From an uncultured bacterium (GTDB taxonomy: Bacteria; Planctomycetota; UBA1135; UBA2386), in NCBI GenBank assembly GCA_937952215.1, contig CALFZH010000060.1, positions 194,464-258,463 on the forward strand: a DNA stretch of 64,000 bases. Direction: 5' to 3'. The stretch's first letter is position 1. Every line of letters begins with the position of its first letter. The position numbers and the translations under genes are program-made. Positions 5,569 to 64,000 of the stretch are shown piece after piece. The notes beneath the pieces are model-generated. The model was not told where the DNA came from and did not search any database. It was given only the letters and a program-made list of their open reading frames with translations.

Positions 5569-6431
5569 AGCCCGACGAACCGTTGTGGGCGGCCGGCATC
5601 GACGTCGGCAGTTCCTCGATCAAGGTGGCGATCCTGCAGGACCGTGGACCGGCGGGAGCGACCTTGACCGCCCGGGTGGTCGAGCGGCTGCGCCGGCGCG
5701 ACCCGTTGCAGGTCGTCGAGGGGGCCCTGCAGCAGGCGCTGCAGGCCGCCGGCCTGCGCCGCGGGCAAATCGACTACGTCGCCACGACCGGCGAAGGCGA
5801 GAAGGTCGAGGACCGCACCGGCCATTTCTACGGCATGACCACGCATGCGCGCGGCGGCCTGTTCCTGGACCCGGCGGTACGGGCGGTCGTCGACATCGGC
5901 GCCCTGCATGCGCGCGCGGTGCTGATGGACGACCGCGCCAAGGTGCTCGGCCACCGCATGACCAGCCAGTGCGCGTCGGGTTCGGGGCAGTTCCTCGAGA
6001 ACATCTGCCGCTACCTCGGCGTCACCATCGACGAGATCGGGCCGCTGTCGCTGACCGCCGACAAGCCGGAGACGTGTTCGTCGATCTGCGCGGTGTTGGC
6101 CGAGACCGACGTCATCAACATGGTGTCGCGCGGCATCTCGATCCCGAACATCCTGAAGGGCATCCACCTGTCGATGGCTGGCCGCTACGTGAAGCTGCTG
6201 ACGTCCGCCGGGGCTCGTGGGCCGGTGCTGGTCACCGGCGGTCTGTCGCGTGACCGCGGCCTGCTGCGGGCGATGACCGAGTCGGCGGCCGAACAGAAGG
6301 TCGCGATCGAAGTGCGGAGCCACGACGACTCGGTGCTGGCCGGCGCGATCGGCGCCGCGTTGTGGGGCGCGTTCCGCGCGCGCAAGCTCGCGGCGAAGGG
6401 CGTGCCGCTCACCACCGGAGTCGCCCGATGA
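5565..6431 (+). CDS. bcrD: benzoyl-CoA reductase subunit D (BcrD/BadG, ATPase)
   Basis: A GTG at 5565 overlaps the bcrA stop (GTGA). The sequence WAAGIDVGSSSIKVAILQD...SQCASGSGQFLENICRYLG is the second BcrAD_BadFG ATPase. The product is 288 aa. Confidence 0.85.
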   Translation: MKPDEPLWAAGIDVGSSSIKVAILQDRGPAGATLTARVVERLRRRDPLQVVEGALQQALQAAGLRRGQIDYVATTGEGEKVEDRTGHFYGMTTHARGGLFLDPAVRAVVDIGALHARAVLMDDRAKVLGHRMTSQCASGSGQFLENICRYLGVTIDEIGPLSLTADKPETCSSICAVLAETDVINMVSRGISIPNILKGIHLSMAGRYVKLLTSAGARGPVLVTGGLSRDRGLLRAMTESAAEQKVAIEVRSHDDSVLAGAIGAALWGAFRARKLAAKGVPLTTGVAR

Positions 6432-40310: not shown

Positions 40311-41444
40311 ATGAGACGGACTGTTCTCGCCGCCGTGCTACTGCTGGCTCCGCCCGCATTCGTCGCCGCCCAAGCCGGCGAGACGAAGCCGGCGCCGAGC
40401 CAGCAGGACCCGCAGGCGGCCTACGACGAGCTGGTCACCGCCCTGAACAAGGCGATGAGCGATTGGCAGACCGAGGCGCAAGCCGCGATCGAGAAGGCGC
40501 AGAAGGCCGGCGAGGCCTTCCCGGCGATCGCGATGCAGCCGCCGACGAAGGAGTTCATCAGCCGCGCGCAGGAGCTCGCCGGCGCCTTCGAAGGCAAGGA
40601 CGACGCGGTGCGCTTCCTCGCGTTCATCGTCAAGAACGCGAGCAACGAGCGCAACGCCGTCCGGAAGGCCGTCGAGACGCTCGCGGCGAAACACGCTGGC
40701 AGCAAGGCGATCGCCGACGTGCTGCCGTTCCTGCCGATGGCGACGCGCTTTGGCGCCAGCAAGTCGGTGATGGCCCTGCTCGATCAGGTCGCTGCCGACC
40801 ACGCCGACGCCGACTGCAAGGCGCTCGCCATGATCACGCGCGGCACGCTGCGGCTGCAGCAGGCGCAGACCGACGAGCAGCGCAAGGCTGCCGAGAAGGA
40901 CCTGCGCGACGTGGCCGCGGTGACCAAGAACGCGGAGCTGCTCGCCCAAGCGAAGGACGCGCTGTTCGAGATCGAGAACCTGCAGGTCGGCTGCACGGCG
41001 CCCGACATCGTCGGCGTCGACGTCGAGGGCGTTCCCTTCAAGCTCAGCGACTACCGCGGCAAGGTGGTCCTGCTCGACTTCTGGGGATTCTGGTGAGGCC
41101 CCTGCCGGGACATGATCCCGCACGAGCGGTCGCTCGTGGAGAAGTGGAAGGACAAGCCGTTCGCGTTGCTCGGCGTCAACAGTGATGGCACCGACACCGA
41201 GGAAGGTCTGAAGAAGTACCGCGAGGAAGCGAAGACCATGGGCGTGACCTGGCGCAGCTTCCGCGACGAGGGCAGCACGCCGAAGATCAGCGACACTTGG
41301 CGCGTGCAGGGCTGGCCGACCCTCTACTTCCTCGATCACGAAGGCGTGATCCGCCACAAGGACGTGCGCGACGACGCGGAGATGGAGAAGGTCCTCGCCG
41401 AGATGATCGAAGCCGCGGAAGCGGCGGCGAAGGCGAAGAAGTGA
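40311..41444 (+). CDS. secreted TlpA/ResA-like thiol:disulfide oxidoreductase, predicted selenoprotein (U-G-P-C), Sec codon at 41094..41096
   Basis: The ATG at 40311 is preceded by AGGAG, and there is a signal peptide LLLAPPAFVAAQA. ORFs 39807..41096 and 41112..41444 are in the same frame. Read-through gives VVLLDFWGFW-U-GPCRDMIPHERSLVEKWKDKPFALLGVNSDG, the Trx-fold WCxPC site. Confidence 0.75.
41121..41138 (+). promoter_or_regulatory. candidate bacterial SECIS hairpin (7-bp stem, GGUC loop)
   Basis: CACGAGC-GGUC-GCUCGUG. The loop starts 31 nt after the UGA. The GGUC apical loop is the same as in the E. coli fdhF SECIS. Confidence 0.6.
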
Positions 41445-59554: not shown

Positions 59555-60133
59555 ATGCCGTTCATCCGTCAGGTCGAGGACCACGAAGCCGGCAGCGAAG
59601 CGCGGCGCGAACTCGACGCGGCGCGCCAGCGCGCGGGCCGCGTCTGGAACATCGTGCGCATCATGACGCCCAATCCGGCGGTGCTGCGCGCGTCGATGGC
59701 GCTCTACCGCGCGGTGATGTTCGGGCCCTCGCCGCTGTCGCGTCGGCAGCGCGAACTGCTCGCGGTCGTCACCAGCCGGGCCAACGGCTGCGTCTATTGA
59801 CTGCGGGCCCACGCGAACGACCTCCGTGCCGAGGTCGTCGACCTGGTCGATGACGGCGCGCGCGACGCGTGGGTCGACGCGGTGGCGCGCGACTGGCGGA
59901 CCGCGGCGCTGAGCCCCGTCGAGCGCGCGTTGTGCGCGTTCGCGGACAAGCTCGCGCGCGCGCCGGCGGCGAACGGCGTCGCCGACGTCGACGCGCTGCG
60001 CGCGGCGGATCTCGACGACGTCGCGATCCACGACGCGACGCAGGTGGTCGCCTACTTCGCCTACATCAACCGCATCGCCAACGGCCTGGGCGTCGAGCTC
60101 GAGACGTTCGTGCGGGCCTGGGGCGCGGTTTGA
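59555..60133 (+). CDS. AhpD/carboxymuconolactone-decarboxylase-family peroxidase-related protein, predicted selenoprotein (C-V-Y-U), Sec codon at 59798..59800
   Basis: ORFs 59555..59800 and 59882..60133 are in the same frame. Read-through gives ...RELLAVVTSRANGCVY-U-LRAHANDL..., the AhpD-family N-x-C-x-Y-C-x3-H motif with the second Cys encoded by TGA. The combined length of 192 aa is typical for this family. Confidence 0.75.
59817..59838 (+). promoter_or_regulatory. candidate bacterial SECIS hairpin (8-bp stem, CGUGCC loop)
   Basis: ACGACCUC-CGUGCC-GAGGUCGU. The loop starts 24 nt after the UGA and contains GU. Confidence 0.55.
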
Positions 60134-60191: not shown

Positions 60192-61376
60192 ATGCTGCAC
60201 GTGCTGTTCGTCGTCGTCGCCTGCGCTGGTGTGTCGGCCCAGGATCCGCCGCGGGAGCCGTCATCCGTGACGACGGCCGAAACCGGGTTCCTGACGCGCA
60301 CGATCGACGTCGCTGGGACGGAGCGTCGCTACGTCGTGTACGTGCCGGCGGGCTACACGCGCGAACGCGACTGGCCGCTGCTCGTGTTCCTGAACGGCAT
60401 GGGCGAGTGCGGCACCGATGGCCAGCGGCAGGTCGAGGTCGGCCTCGGGCCGGCGATCCGCGCCGAGCCGGAGCGCTGGCCGTTCGTGGTGGTGTTCCCG
60501 CAGAAGCCCGACAAGCCTTCGCAGTGGAGCGACCACGAGGCGCTGGTGATGGGCACGCTCGCGGCGGCGGAGAAGGAGTTCCGCATCGATCCGCGGCGGC
60601 GGTTGCTCACCGGGTTGTCGCAGGGTGGCGCAGGAACGTGGGCGCTCGGCGGCAAGCGCGCCAAGGTGTGGGCCGCGATCGCGCCGGTGTGTGGCTACAA
60701 GACGCCGGCGTTCGATGGGGCGGCGCTGAAGGCGATGCCGATCTGGGCGTTCCACGGCGATGGCGACAAGGTCGTGCCCGTCGGCCAGTCGAAGGAGATG
60801 TGCGAGGCGGTCGAGCAGGCGGGCGGGTCGCCGCTGCTCACGCTCTACCCCGGCGTGGGCCACAACTCGTGGGACCGCGCCTACCGCGAGTCCGGGCTCG
60901 CCGAGTGGTTCTGCGCCGTCGCCAACGAACCACTCGGCGCGCGGCTGCTGGCGATGCCGGAGACCCTCACCGCCGTCACGATCACGATCGCGCAGCGGCC
61001 AGCGGCGTCGGCATCGAGCGCGCCGCGGACGACGCGGCTCGCGGTGGCCGGCACGACGTGGGAATGGGACCTGCCGACCGGAATGGAGGGGGCGCTGCAG
61101 GGCGGTGGCGGGACGACGGCTGCGTCGTGGCAGGACAGCAAGAAGGCCAAGCTGGTGCACGAGGTGCTGCGGTCGCTGCAGCGAGCCGGCGCGTTCGACG
61201 CACGTTCGCCGGCGGCCGTCGACGACCGTGTCGCCGGCACGCGGCTCGACGTCGTGCTGCGTGGTCCGGCCGGCGAGTGGAGCTTCTCGCGTCACGTGGC
61301 GGCCGACGTACCGCAGCACGGTTCGTTCGCTGCCGCGATGCAGCGCGTCACCGACGCGATCGCCAACGCCCGCTGA
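60192..61376 (+). CDS. secreted alpha/beta hydrolase (esterase/PHB-depolymerase-like) with C-terminal unknown domain
   Basis: Signal peptide VVVACAGVSAQ. It has a GLSQGG nucleophile elbow, FHGDGDKVVPV and GVGHNSWD, giving a Ser-Asp-His arrangement. Confidence 0.65.
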   Translation: MLHVLFVVVACAGVSAQDPPREPSSVTTAETGFLTRTIDVAGTERRYVVYVPAGYTRERDWPLLVFLNGMGECGTDGQRQVEVGLGPAIRAEPERWPFVVVFPQKPDKPSQWSDHEALVMGTLAAAEKEFRIDPRRRLLTGLSQGGAGTWALGGKRAKVWAAIAPVCGYKTPAFDGAALKAMPIWAFHGDGDKVVPVGQSKEMCEAVEQAGGSPLLTLYPGVGHNSWDRAYRESGLAEWFCAVANEPLGARLLAMPETLTAVTITIAQRPAASASSAPRTTRLAVAGTTWEWDLPTGMEGALQGGGGTTAASWQDSKKAKLVHEVLRSLQRAGAFDARSPAAVDDRVAGTRLDVVLRGPAGEWSFSRHVAADVPQHGSFAAAMQRVTDAIANAR

Positions 61377-61385
61377 CGCGCCGCG

Positions 61386-62639
61386 TCACTTCCACCCGTA
61401 GACCCAGTGCATCGACGGCGCCACCGGCGGCGCGTCGGCCGGCGCGAGTTCGAACGCGAAGGCCAGCGGTGCCGGGCCGAAGTCGTCGTCCCGGCCGTTG
61501 AACTCGGTGGCGCCGCGGCGTTCGCCGATCGCCAGCAGCTGGAACGTGGTGAACACGCCGCGCGCACGGTCGAAGCGCGCAGCACCCAGCAGCTTGCCGT
61601 CGTAGCCGAGTTGCTGTTCCGAATGCGGGCCGTAGCCGCGCGTTGCCCAGGTGCCACTGCGCTGGATGCGCACCTTGCCCTCGAGCAGCAGCATCTGGTT
61701 GTCGCCGTCGAGCGCATCGCACGTCAGCGTTAGCGCCGCCTCGACGACGTTCTCCGGCTGGTGCGCGAACGTCTGCCCGCGCACGTTGTCGACGAAGTGC
61801 GCGCGAACGAACCGCTGCAGCAGCGCTGCCGGCATCGCCACCCGCGCCCCGAGTTCGGCCGCGGGCACGAAGCTCGCGACCTCGGCGCGGCGGAACCACG
61901 CGTGGTCCTGGTTCCACGCCGAACCGCGCCAGCCCGGCGTCGCCTTCACGCGCGAGACGTCGCGGCTGTAGGCGCGCAGCACCAGACCGTCGGCCGGGAA
62001 GTGGCGCTCGAAGCGTTGGATCGCCGTCGGATCGAGCGCGGGGGCGGCGCCCGACCGCTGCTCGCGCGGCATCGCCTCGAACTTCGCGAGCGCCTGCTGC
62101 AGCATCTTCGCCATCTCGCCGGCGTCGCGCGTGTTGATCGACGCGAGGAAGGCGCCGGTCGCGGTCACCGCGTAGATGCCTTGGCGCGTGTTCGACGGCT
62201 TGGTGCGTCCGCCGTAGTGGCCCTGTTCGCAGAAGCCCTGGAAGAAGCGGCACTCGGCGTCGCTGTCGCGCTGCAGCCGGCTCACCTCGTCGGCGACGGC
62301 GACGAACCGCGCCGCCAGCGCCTGCACCGCGTCGTTCGACCAGACGGACCGTCTGGCCGCCACGCCGTTGTTTCAAGTGCAGGCCAGCGGATGGCCGTTC
62401 ATCGCCCACAGCAGGATCGGCTTGTCGGCAGCCTGGGCGGCGACCACGCCCTCGCCGAGCGTGCCGAGCCACGCGATGCGCCGCCAGGCGAGTTCGTCTT
62501 CGCTCGGCACGATCTTCAGCCACAGGGTGCGGAAGGTGGAGTCGTCGAGAACCGGCACCGGCTCGGCCTGCGCCAGGGCCGCGCCGATCGCCAGCGCGAA
62601 CGGGAGTGCGTGCATCGCCGGAGTCGCCATGCGCGGCAT
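61386..62639 (-). CDS. secreted thioredoxin-fold protein fused to an unrecognised 325-aa domain, predicted selenoprotein (C-T-U), Sec codon at 62373..62375
   Basis: ORF 61386..62363 and the C-terminal 85-88 codons of ORF 62373..63341 are in frame, separated by TGA plus 3 codons. The N-terminus has a signal peptide (MPRMATPAMHALPFALAIGAALAQA). This is followed by ...AADKPILLWAMNGHPLACT-U-NNGVAARRSVWSNDAVQALAARFVAVADEV, a beta1-loop-alpha1 pattern of the Thioredoxin_7/DUF255 type. The start is 62639 or 62630. Confidence 0.6.
62338..62358 (-). promoter_or_regulatory. candidate bacterial SECIS hairpin (8-bp stem, GGUCC loop)
   Basis: On the mRNA strand: GGCCAGAC-GGUCC-GUCUGGUC. The loop starts 22 nt after the UGA and contains the GGUC motif. 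Confidence 0.55.
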
Positions 62640-62742
62640 GGTAACTCGGGCTTCGCGACAACTCGCGGCGCGCGCGCTTTCGTTCTGGCCAGGGCAGGAG
62701 CGCATCGGAATGCGGCTGGTCGCTACGATCGCGCGCCACCCG

Positions 62743-64000
62743 ATGACCTCGCTCTCGTCGTCCCCTCGCCCGCTCACGCAGTGCGCCGTCGTCGTCTCCG
62801 CCAAGGACAACGTCGCGATCGTCAAGACCGGGCTCGTCGCTGGCGATCTCGTCGCATTCTCCGACGGCTCGAAGCTCGTGATCACCGGCGAAGTGACGCC
62901 CGGCCATCGCTTCGCCACCCGCGCGATCCCGGCCGGACAGTTCGTGCTGCAGTACGGCCAGCCGATCGGCACCAGCTCGGGCATCGCCGCAGGCGACCCG
63001 ATCAGCCACGCCAACATGCGCAACGAGGTGCCGCTCGTGCGCGACCTGCCGGCGACGCTGCACAACCCGCCGCCCGTTCTCGTGCCGCCCGCGACGCGCG
63101 CGACCTTCCGCGGCTTTCGGCGCGAGAACGGCCGTGTCGGCACGCGCAACTGGGTTCTGATCGTGCCGACCAGCATGTGCAGCAGCCACGAGGCGGCGCA
63201 GATCGCGATGATCGCCGAGTTCACGCACTGGAGCCGCGCTCGCTTCCCCAACGTCGACGGCGTGGTGGCGCTGCCGCACAACAAGGGCTGCGGCTGCAGC
63301 GACGGCAGCAACCTCGACGTGATGCTGCGCACGCTCGCCAACTACGCCGACCACCCGAACGTCGGCGGCGTCCTGTTCATGGACCTCGGCTGCGAGAAGA
63401 CGAACCTGACGCTGGTCGAGAAGTACCTGAAGCAACGCGGCGGCCTGTCGACGAACAAGCCCGTGCATTGGCTCGGCGTGCAGGAGTGCGGCGGCACGCA
63501 GGGCGCGATCCAGAAGGGCCTCGAGCTCGTCGTCGAGATGCTGGCGATCGCCAACACCGCCACGCGCAGCGAGGTGTCCGCCGAGCACCTGACGCTCGGC
63601 GTCAAGTGCGGCGGCAGCGATGGCTTCTCGGGGCTGTCGGCCAATCCGGCACTCGGCCACGCGGCCGATCTGCTGGTGCAGAACGGCGGCACGGTGCTGA
63701 TCACCGAGATCCCCGAGTTCTGCGGCGGCGAGCACCTGTTCGCGGCGCGCGCGAAGGACCTGGCGACCGCGCGCCAGGTGTTCGAGTACGTCGACTGGTA
63801 CAAGGGCTACGCGGCGAAGTTCGGCACCAAGCTCGACGACAACCCGAGCCCGGGCAACGTGAAGGGCGGGTTGCTGAACATCACGATCAAGTCGCTCGGC
63901 GCGATGGCGAAGGCCGGCACGACGCGCGTCGAAGGGTGCACGCCGTACGCGCAACCGCCGAGTGCGCACGGGCTGCACCTGATGCAGGGGCCCGGCTACG
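62743..64000 (+). CDS. altronate/galactarate dehydratase family (UxaA/GarD; SAF domain N-terminus), 3'-truncated by the window edge
   Basis: This gene is absent from the ORF track because it has no stop in the window. My translation is MTSLSSSPRPLTQCAVVVSAKDNVAIVKTGL...GFRRENGRVGTRNWVLIVPTSMCSSHEA...LPHNKGCGCS...GVKCGGSDGFSG...NITIKSLGA. An alternative in-frame ATG is at 62710. The start coordinate was hand-indexed. Confidence 0.7.
   Translation, partial: MTSLSSSPRPLTQCAVVVSAKDNVAIVKTGLVAGDLVAFSDGSKLVITGEVTPGHRFATRAIPAGQFVLQYGQPIGTSSGIAAGDPISHANMRNEVPLVRDLPATLHNPPPVLVPPATRATFRGFRRENGRVGTRNWVLIVPTSMCSSHEAAQIAMIAEFTHWSRARFPNVDGVVALPHNKGCGCSDGSNLDVMLRTLANYADHPNVGGVLFMDLGCEKTNLTLVEKYLKQRGGLSTNKPVHWLGVQECGGTQGAIQKGLELVVEMLAIANTATRSEVSAEHLTLGVKCGGSDGFSGLSANPALGHAADLLVQNGGTVLITEIPEFCGGEHLFAARAKDLATARQVFEYVDWYKGYAAKFGTKLDDNPSPGNVKGGLLNITIKSLGAMAKAGTTRVEGCTPYAQPPSAHGLHLMQGPGY

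Follow-up and report, generated by a model that had tools for sequence, protein, structure and literature searches.

Evidence for a new family of exported selenoproteins with a thioredoxin-like fold in Planctomycetota and Armatimonadota

The gene considered here lies on a stretch of 64,000 nucleotides (the window) from an uncultured bacterium of the planctomycete lineage UBA2386 (assembly GCA_937952215.1, contig CALFZH010000060.1, positions 194,464 to 258,463 of the forward strand); all coordinates below are those of the window. Two adjacent open reading frames (ORFs), annotated there as separate genes, are one gene for a secreted protein of 417 residues. The UGA between them is almost certainly read as selenocysteine (Sec, U), which places this residue in the active site of a thioredoxin-like domain. 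Taken as a whole, the locus very probably represents a single gene for an exported, Sec-containing protein of an uncatalogued family. The principal features are as follows.

61386..62639, minus strand: the whole selenoprotein gene, with its ATG at 62639, the Sec-UGA as codon 89 and a TGA terminator at 61388-61386; it encodes 417 aa
62565..62639, minus strand: signal-peptide-like N-terminus, aa 1-25, MPRMATPAMHALPFALAIGAALAQA followed by EP, read from the sequence
62049..62552, minus strand: thioredoxin-like catalytic domain (Thioredoxin_7, AGR or DsbD-gamma type), about aa 30-197, spanning the UGA
62373..62375, minus strand: in-frame UGA, codon 89, the putative Sec codon; TGA in 82 of 82 loci
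62337..62359, minus strand: hairpin of the bacterial Sec insertion sequence (bSECIS) type, nt +17 to +39, recognized from RNA folding, pairing, covariation and synonymous bias
61389..62048, minus strand: C-terminal beta-rich domain, aa 198-417 (220 residues), modelled on its own

One gene behind two annotations

The two ORFs share a frame on the minus strand. The upstream ORF, 62373..63341, ends in KPILLWAMNGHPLACT; the downstream ORF, 61386..62363, has a GTG start and encodes 325 aa. The gap between them consists of TGA (62375-62373) and AAC AAC GGC; with this TGA taken as a sense codon, 417 codons follow one another without interruption from the ATG at 62639 to the TGA at 61388-61386. This arrangement had been pointed out in the initial annotation, together with the prediction that a standard gene caller would report a GTG-started protein of 325 aa. 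Both statements hold: public gene calls at the locus give an 88-aa protein and a 325-aa protein.

Database searches repeat the pattern on a larger scale. The joined sequence retrieves 288 relatives, nearly all of about 325 aa and beginning exactly after the TGA-equivalent. With the 88-aa N-terminal piece as query, 106 proteins of about 80-100 aa are found, which end at the TGA-equivalent. Short and long proteins of these lengths on either side of a TGA are just what results when callers split one gene. An exhaustive search with a profile, at E <= 0.001, yields at least 1,554 cluster representatives (clusters at 50% identity).

Conservation across the in-frame UGA

A scan of one genome per species gave 171 genomic loci. 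The best 80 of these, mostly from Planctomycetota with others from Fimbriimonadia/Armatimonadota, were combined with the window and one JGI contig into a set of 82 orthologues. TGA occupies a single alignment column in all 82 loci, in Planctomycetota and Armatimonadota alike. Upstream of it the frame is conserved over some 75-100 codons (about 85) at every locus, and coding conservation is found on both sides. The context reads K-P-[IV]-L-L-W-A-M-N-G-H-P-[LM]-[AG]-[C/Q/S]-[T/V]-U-N-N-G-[VI]-x-x-R-[RQ]-S-V-W, in which W-A-M-N-G-H and U-N-N-G never vary. At their real ends these genes use all three stop codons (TAG in 35, TGA in 34, TAA in 13), so a stop-codon preference does not explain why codon 89 is always TGA. 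Global reassignment of TGA was considered and ruled out: TGA terminates the window gene and 34 of the 82 orthologues.

These data bear on the annotation as two genes, according to which a small secreted protein of 88 aa is followed by a GTG-initiated protein of 325 aa, made by re-initiation or coupling. Every public gene caller annotates the locus in this way, and in the window a GTG lies 9 nt past the TGA. In many orthologues, however, the supposed start codon is GTC, ATC, GTT, GTA or CTA, and since the position varies GTG is not a conserved restart codon. The stop is TGA at all 82 loci although the real terminators are mixed, the thioredoxin fold described below needs a strand from the upstream piece, and continuous homologues with Cys or Trp at this position exist. 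The initial annotation had allowed that homologues might begin at the GTG-equivalent, or that the upstream 88 codons might be unconserved; neither is the case, given the varying codon and the approximately 85 codons conserved in frame at the 82 loci. The two-gene explanation is effectively refuted, and its chances are very small indeed.

The locus might also be a pseudogene, or its nonsense codon an artefact of sequencing or assembly; the presence of the stop codon is all that speaks for this. Against it stand the identical TGA in 82 independent assemblies, purifying selection on both sides and the absence of frameshifts. Judged by this conservation, the explanation is refuted and its probability is negligible.

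A hairpin under RNA-level selection

The initial annotation had described an 8-bp hairpin with a GGUC-containing loop after the UGA, and this is present as described. With the U of the UGA as nt 1, GGCCAGAC occupies nt 18-25, GGUCC nt 26-30 and GUCUGGUC nt 31-38; the structure starts 14 nt past the UGA and its loop 22 nt past it. The core stem pairs +19..+26 with +30..+37 (62357-62350 with 62346-62339), leaving an apical loop of G27-U28-C29 (62349-62347) inside GGUC. In the alternative drawing by RNAfold the stem has 10 bp and closes on a GUC triloop, at -15.5 kcal/mol.

Published rules for bSECIS elements specify a loop of 3-9 nt with G in the first two loop positions, a stem of 4-16 bp, a spacing of 16-37 nt and an energy of <= -7.5 kcal/mol (PMC13188914, Fig. 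2A). They were applied strictly, with mismatches disallowed, and 4,555 in-frame positions of the same genes served as controls. The window hairpin conforms, its 10-bp stem and GUC loop lying at a spacing of 23 nt with an energy of -15.5 kcal/mol, and 68 of the 82 family sites pass, compared with 12% of control positions. In the gap-free alignment of the 82 sequences, pairing holds in 85.2% of the cells of helix 19-26/30-37; moving the register by 1-3 nt lowers this to 26-47%. The pair 26-30 covaries (GC in 35, AU in 15, GU in 8). Because the hairpin sits in conserved codons (A-R-R/Q-S-V-W), codon choice there was compared with that in the rest of the same genes.

Ala, nt 19-21: pairing codon GCC, 98% at the hairpin and 38% elsewhere
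Arg, nt 22-24: pairing codon AGA/AGG, 76% at the hairpin and 6% elsewhere
Val, nt 31-33: pairing codon GTC, 96% at the hairpin and 45% elsewhere

The loop residue G27, which falls at a wobble position, is conserved in at least 90%. The hairpin is under RNA-level selection.

The SECIS of Escherichia coli fdhF, in whose loop G-U is the SelB contact, offers the closest comparison. Like it, the candidate hairpin lies inside the ORF directly after the UGA and has a GGUC-containing loop in which G-U is exposed. Unlike it, the candidate has no evident bulged U, and its loop can close to a GUC triloop.

The thioredoxin-like domain and its active site

The N-terminus has a typical signal-peptide layout, with predicted cleavage between ALPFALAIGAALAQA and EP. 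AlphaFold2 (AF2) leaves aa 1-25 disordered at a predicted local distance difference test score (pLDDT) of about 50, and a hydrophobic h-region is present in 89-99% of orthologues (89% of 80 at a 10-aa Kyte-Doolittle mean >= 2.0). The layout and the hydrophobic segment are in line with the signal peptide that had been predicted.

For structure prediction the joined chain was supplied to AF2 with 123 aligned sequences and X at the U position. The model, of the kind for which the initial annotation had called, is one compact protein (pLDDT 93.7, predicted template modelling score 0.90) and contains a thioredoxin fold spanning the UGA. Strand beta1 (75-80) lies before the UGA, while alpha1 (91-98), beta2 (113-118), beta3/beta4 (154-168) and alpha3 (173-189) lie after it. 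As beta1 precedes the UGA, the fold is incomplete without the upstream ORF. Earlier the domain had been placed in the segment of about 88 aa; the strand-loop-helix arrangement around the UGA is seen in the model, but the domain itself crosses the UGA and runs to about residue 197.

Foldseek against the PDB finds AGR2 and AGR3 (probability 0.99-1.0, TM-score on the target 0.60-0.64). A sequence-profile search of the PDB gives marginal matches only, to DsbD-gamma (E = 0.09) and AGR3. The model, the Foldseek matches and the DsbD-gamma alignment agree on a predicted thioredoxin fold in which the redox residue comes after beta1, at the N-terminal end of alpha1. When the alignment to E. coli DsbD-gamma is extended ungapped across columns that the profile omits, U89 pairs with its Cys461 and Gly92 with its resolving Cys. 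Sec therefore stands where CxxC has its first Cys, and the second Cys is replaced by an invariant Gly, which makes U-N-N-G the defining motif. The residue at +3 from U is Gly in 82 of 82 sequences and that at -3 is Ala or Gly; a second redox Cys three residues from Sec, as in UxxC or CxxU, occurs in none of the 82. Cys87, at -2, is present in 73 of them, with Q in seven and S in two. The initial annotation is supported as to the fold and the redox position; its C-T-U is not the defining feature.

Conserved motifs of the domain are U89-N-N-G92, E138-x-G-H-Y-x-G-R145 and T151-R-Q-G154. A catalytic tetrad like that of glutathione peroxidases, suggested by the order U...Q...W-N, was entertained and dropped, the W-N-Q-D motif lying outside the thioredoxin fold in the model.

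The C-terminal domain

Modelled alone, the C-terminal domain reaches a pLDDT of 96.2 and consists of long antiparallel strands. Its conserved motifs are N243-x-D-x-x-W248, D284-x-V-R-G-Q289 and G372-x-R-x-G-x-T378-x-x-N-x-R383. Foldseek, run with the whole model and with this domain alone, returns no credible relative of it in the PDB (best E = 0.05, probability <= 0.16, TM-score <= 0.23). No Pfam or NCBIfam model matches the domain in the window protein, and no Pfam model matches it in nine full-length homologues. The three kinds of search agree with the earlier statement that it can be placed in no family.

Continuous homologues

Homologues that are continuous across the UGA column are rare. 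Forms with Cys aligned to the U, for which the initial annotation had proposed to search, exist among them: there are four (P0055, P0086, P0124 and P0244). Four further continuous homologues have R, A, S or D in this column. The motif E-Q-G-H-[YF]-x-G-R...[TS]-R-Q-G is kept in the Cys forms P0055, P0086 and P0124 and lost in P0244; in the R, S, D and A forms it is lost or degraded. The comparison suggests that the EQGH/RQG motif and Sec or Cys act together.

One orthologue, P0031, has TGG (Trp) at the Sec codon, as seen in DNA (Logan ERR14373513, contig L001, 2034-2036). Both the hairpin after this codon (CCAGACGGUCGGUCUGG) and all flanking motifs are retained. The TGG could have arisen by recent mutation, reflect an error of sequencing or mark an inactive allele.

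The Asp form, P0156 (MBI2930353.1, 1541 aa, from a planctomycete metagenome-assembled genome), is a Ser/Thr protein kinase that has Kelch repeats and ends in a Sec-less copy of the whole two-domain module, its extracellular tail. Sensing or ligand binding may be a further role for which the two-domain scaffold has been taken up.

Selenocysteine use in the source genome

Scanning the window for in-frame TGAs adjoining Cys revealed two further genes.

59555-60133, plus strand: AhpD-like 'peroxidase-related enzyme' gene, TGA at 59798-59800, motif C-V-Y-U
about 40317-41444, plus strand: TlpA/redoxin-like thiol:disulfide oxidoreductase gene, TGA at 41094-41096, motif F-W-U-G-P-C

The AhpD-like gene is called as two ORFs, of 81 aa (CMD) and 83 aa. 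With U changed to C its product scores 144 bits on TIGR01926 (cut-off 81.8) in a match that crosses the TGA, and it also matches NF041238. Its candidate SECIS has the stem CGACCUC/GAGGUCG and a loop from nt 28. The TlpA-like product bears a predicted signal peptide and matches AhpC-TSA with 62.7 bits across the TGA; its hairpin, CACGAGC-GGUC-GCUCGUG, has a GGUC tetraloop. Both hairpins are compatible with the bSECIS rules, and by sequence both genes are members of known selenoprotein families. Planctomycetes with complete selA/B/C/D sets are on record (PMC4807772). The two known-family genes and the lineage together give strong, if indirect, support for Sec decoding in the source genome. Since three putative Sec genes occur within 64 kb, the genome may hold a large selenoproteome.

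Observations that weigh against Sec decoding

Several results count against the reading of this locus as a Sec-decoding gene. Within the 64-kb window, selA, selB, selC and selD were not seen; ARAGORN found no tRNA-Sec there, and a regular-expression scan of the window for SelB and SelD motifs had no matches. An Rfam scan of 61000-63000 at E <= 10 produced chance-level matches only and no bacterial SECIS model. Folding energy over the whole segment is unremarkable for a G+C content of 70%, with z = -0.34 (81 nt) and -1.65 (60 nt) against dinucleotide shuffles and a mean z of -0.7 against synonymous recoding. With an unremarkable energy and no Rfam match in the single sequence, comparative data were needed. 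As to the SECIS search proposed in the initial annotation, the published rules are satisfied and pairing is kept at synonymous sites; the Rfam models do not match. Fourteen of the 82 orthologues fail the strict no-mismatch test. Most of these use CGN for the first Arg, and in several of the CGN cases Gly (GGC) or Ala (GCG) replaces the Ser after the Trp codon, a change that appears to offer the failing sites an alternative outer pairing.

On the protein side, Pfam Thioredoxin_7 (PF13899) reaches 12.7 bits over aa 56-116 (E = 0.14), against a gathering threshold of 27, and matches none of the nine full-length homologues scanned. The occurrence of W, R, A, S or D in the U column of some homologues indicates that residue 89 is dispensable for folding. 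The gene neighbourhood across the 82 loci holds nothing recurrent except the gene and its antisense or alternative-frame ORFs, and it therefore yields no operon clue to the reductant or the substrate.

In the course of the tRNA search ARAGORN made a single call, an unusually long 'tRNA-Ala(GGC)' of 94 nt at 5690-5783 on the minus strand. At E <= 1 Rfam does not support a tRNA at this place, where the sequence resembles G+C-rich coding DNA; the call is probably a false positive.

The same UGA might instead be read by a standard amino acid, such as Trp from a near-cognate tRNA, in programmed read-through stimulated by the hairpin. TGG in one homologue and the lack of Sec machinery genes in the window fit such a mechanism. 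Trp at a redox site would be non-functional, however, and the position corresponds to the nucleophilic Cys, which four homologues have, three of them with the full active-site motif. The hairpin moreover has the G-U loop and the spacing of a bSECIS, like those of the two known-family Sec genes in the window. Insertion of a standard residue is accordingly rated highly improbable, and decoding as Sec is preferred.

Relation to described families

AGR2, AGR3, ERp18 and DsbD-gamma have in common with the window protein the fold, the redox residue at the N-terminus of alpha1 and an extracytoplasmic location, which for the window protein follows from predicted export. AGR2/3 (CxxS) also lack a resolving Cys at +3. 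The window protein differs in having Sec instead of Cys as its nucleophile, in the motif U-N-N-G; in an invariant NGHP loop, EQGHYxGR and TRQG, which stand in the place of the usual W-C-x-x-C and cis-Pro signatures; and in the fusion of the domain to a beta domain of 220 aa. Selenoproteins of the UxxC type (TlpA/redoxin-like; 'Trx-like 2' of the DsbD-gamma type, cd02953; Trx7/PDZ, NF041199) are likewise secreted and of thioredoxin fold, have their Sec in the CxxC region and carry a bSECIS hairpin inside the ORF. The UxxC/CxxU families, however, keep a resolving Cys and match Pfam or NCBIfam models, while the window protein has Gly at +3, matches none of these and carries a new C-terminal domain.

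In NCBIfam (release 20.0, June 2026) the window protein matches 0 families at E <= 10, with all NF04xxxx selenoprotein models included; the neighbouring AhpD-like gene, as positive control, matches TIGR01926 and NF041238. PF13192 likewise has no match to the window protein at E <= 10. Of the 119 families that the catalogue of May 2026 (PMC13188914) lists, none has the motif or the architecture, and none of those in the Global Ocean Sampling (GOS) survey fits. A literature search found no earlier description of the family, the 'hypothetical' candidate of planctomycete P1 (PMC4807772, Table S9) being compared by description only.

Two published entries nonetheless leave room for a genuine selenoprotein family already described under another name. 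The P1 candidate is a split gene with a SECIS and has a Cys homologue in Rhodopirellula sallentina, and it could belong to the same family. Table 2 of the GOS survey lists an 'Unknown' family without Cys homologues; this too was compared by description only. The homologues in NCBI and JGI, for their part, are all 'hypothetical protein' truncated at the TGA, and together with the NCBIfam and catalogue results this makes an earlier name unlikely. The initial proposal of a possible new selenoprotein family, with a thioredoxin fold and an in-ORF SECIS, is thus supported by the conservation of the UGA, the Cys homologues, the hairpin and the lack of a catalogue match.

Proposed mechanism

A mechanism can be outlined from the sequence and from established SelB biology; Sec insertion itself, and export, we infer. 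(i) The ribosome would meet UGA at codon 89, and the hairpin loop (G-U-C in GGUC), 23 nt downstream, would recruit SelB-GTP-Sec-tRNA(Sec). (ii) Sec would be inserted in place of termination. (iii) After cleavage of the signal peptide, the mature protein would comprise the thioredoxin-like domain and, tightly packed against it, the new beta-rich domain. (iv) Sec would take the nucleophilic N-terminal Cys position of CxxC at the exposed start of alpha1, with an invariant Gly at the resolving position, so that the protein is most likely a single-selenol oxidoreductase. (v) The selenolate would attack an oxidized substrate, which could be a peroxide, a disulfide or an oxyanion-type compound. (vi) The resulting selenenic or selenenylsulfide intermediate would be resolved either by an external thiol or by Cys87, which 89% of members possess. 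The C-x-U spacing has the same frequency, with the Cys dispensable in the 11% that have Q or S, and a vicinal selenenylsulfide at C-x-U is chemically plausible. The substrate probably binds between a conserved cluster of His, Arg, Gln and Asn (NGHP, EQGHYxGR, TRQG) and the C-terminal domain, which together would make up its site.

Neighbouring genes

The gene is monocistronic, flanked by a divergent and a convergent gene, neither of which adjoins the orthologues at other loci in a conserved manner.

62743 onward, plus strand: divergent altronate-dehydratase-like gene with GD_AH domains
60192-61376, plus strand: convergent gene for a secreted esterase/peptidase_S9-like protein of 394 aa

Significance

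The bacterial selenoproteome gains a large family found in two phyla, with at least 1,554 clusters at 50% identity. Gene callers split the gene into two hypothetical proteins, and the family has for that reason been invisible to annotation; it provides a useful test case for selenoprotein-aware gene callers. Sec forms dominate, and Cys forms make up a few percent of representatives, from which it can be argued that selenium is functionally required here. A more far-reaching view, offered tentatively and with the balance of probability somewhat against it, is that these proteins constitute an almost obligately Sec-dependent class of exported enzymes, widespread in Planctomycetota and Armatimonadota, in which a single-selenol U-N-N-G site and the beta domain would serve an extracytoplasmic redox reaction (e.g. 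peroxide or oxyanion reduction) outside the known thiol oxidoreductase families. The site is unusual in itself: U-x-x-G in a fold of the DsbD-gamma/AGR type, joined to a domain that is modelled with confidence and lacks any structural relative. The family is a concrete place from which to look for new extracytoplasmic selenium chemistry.

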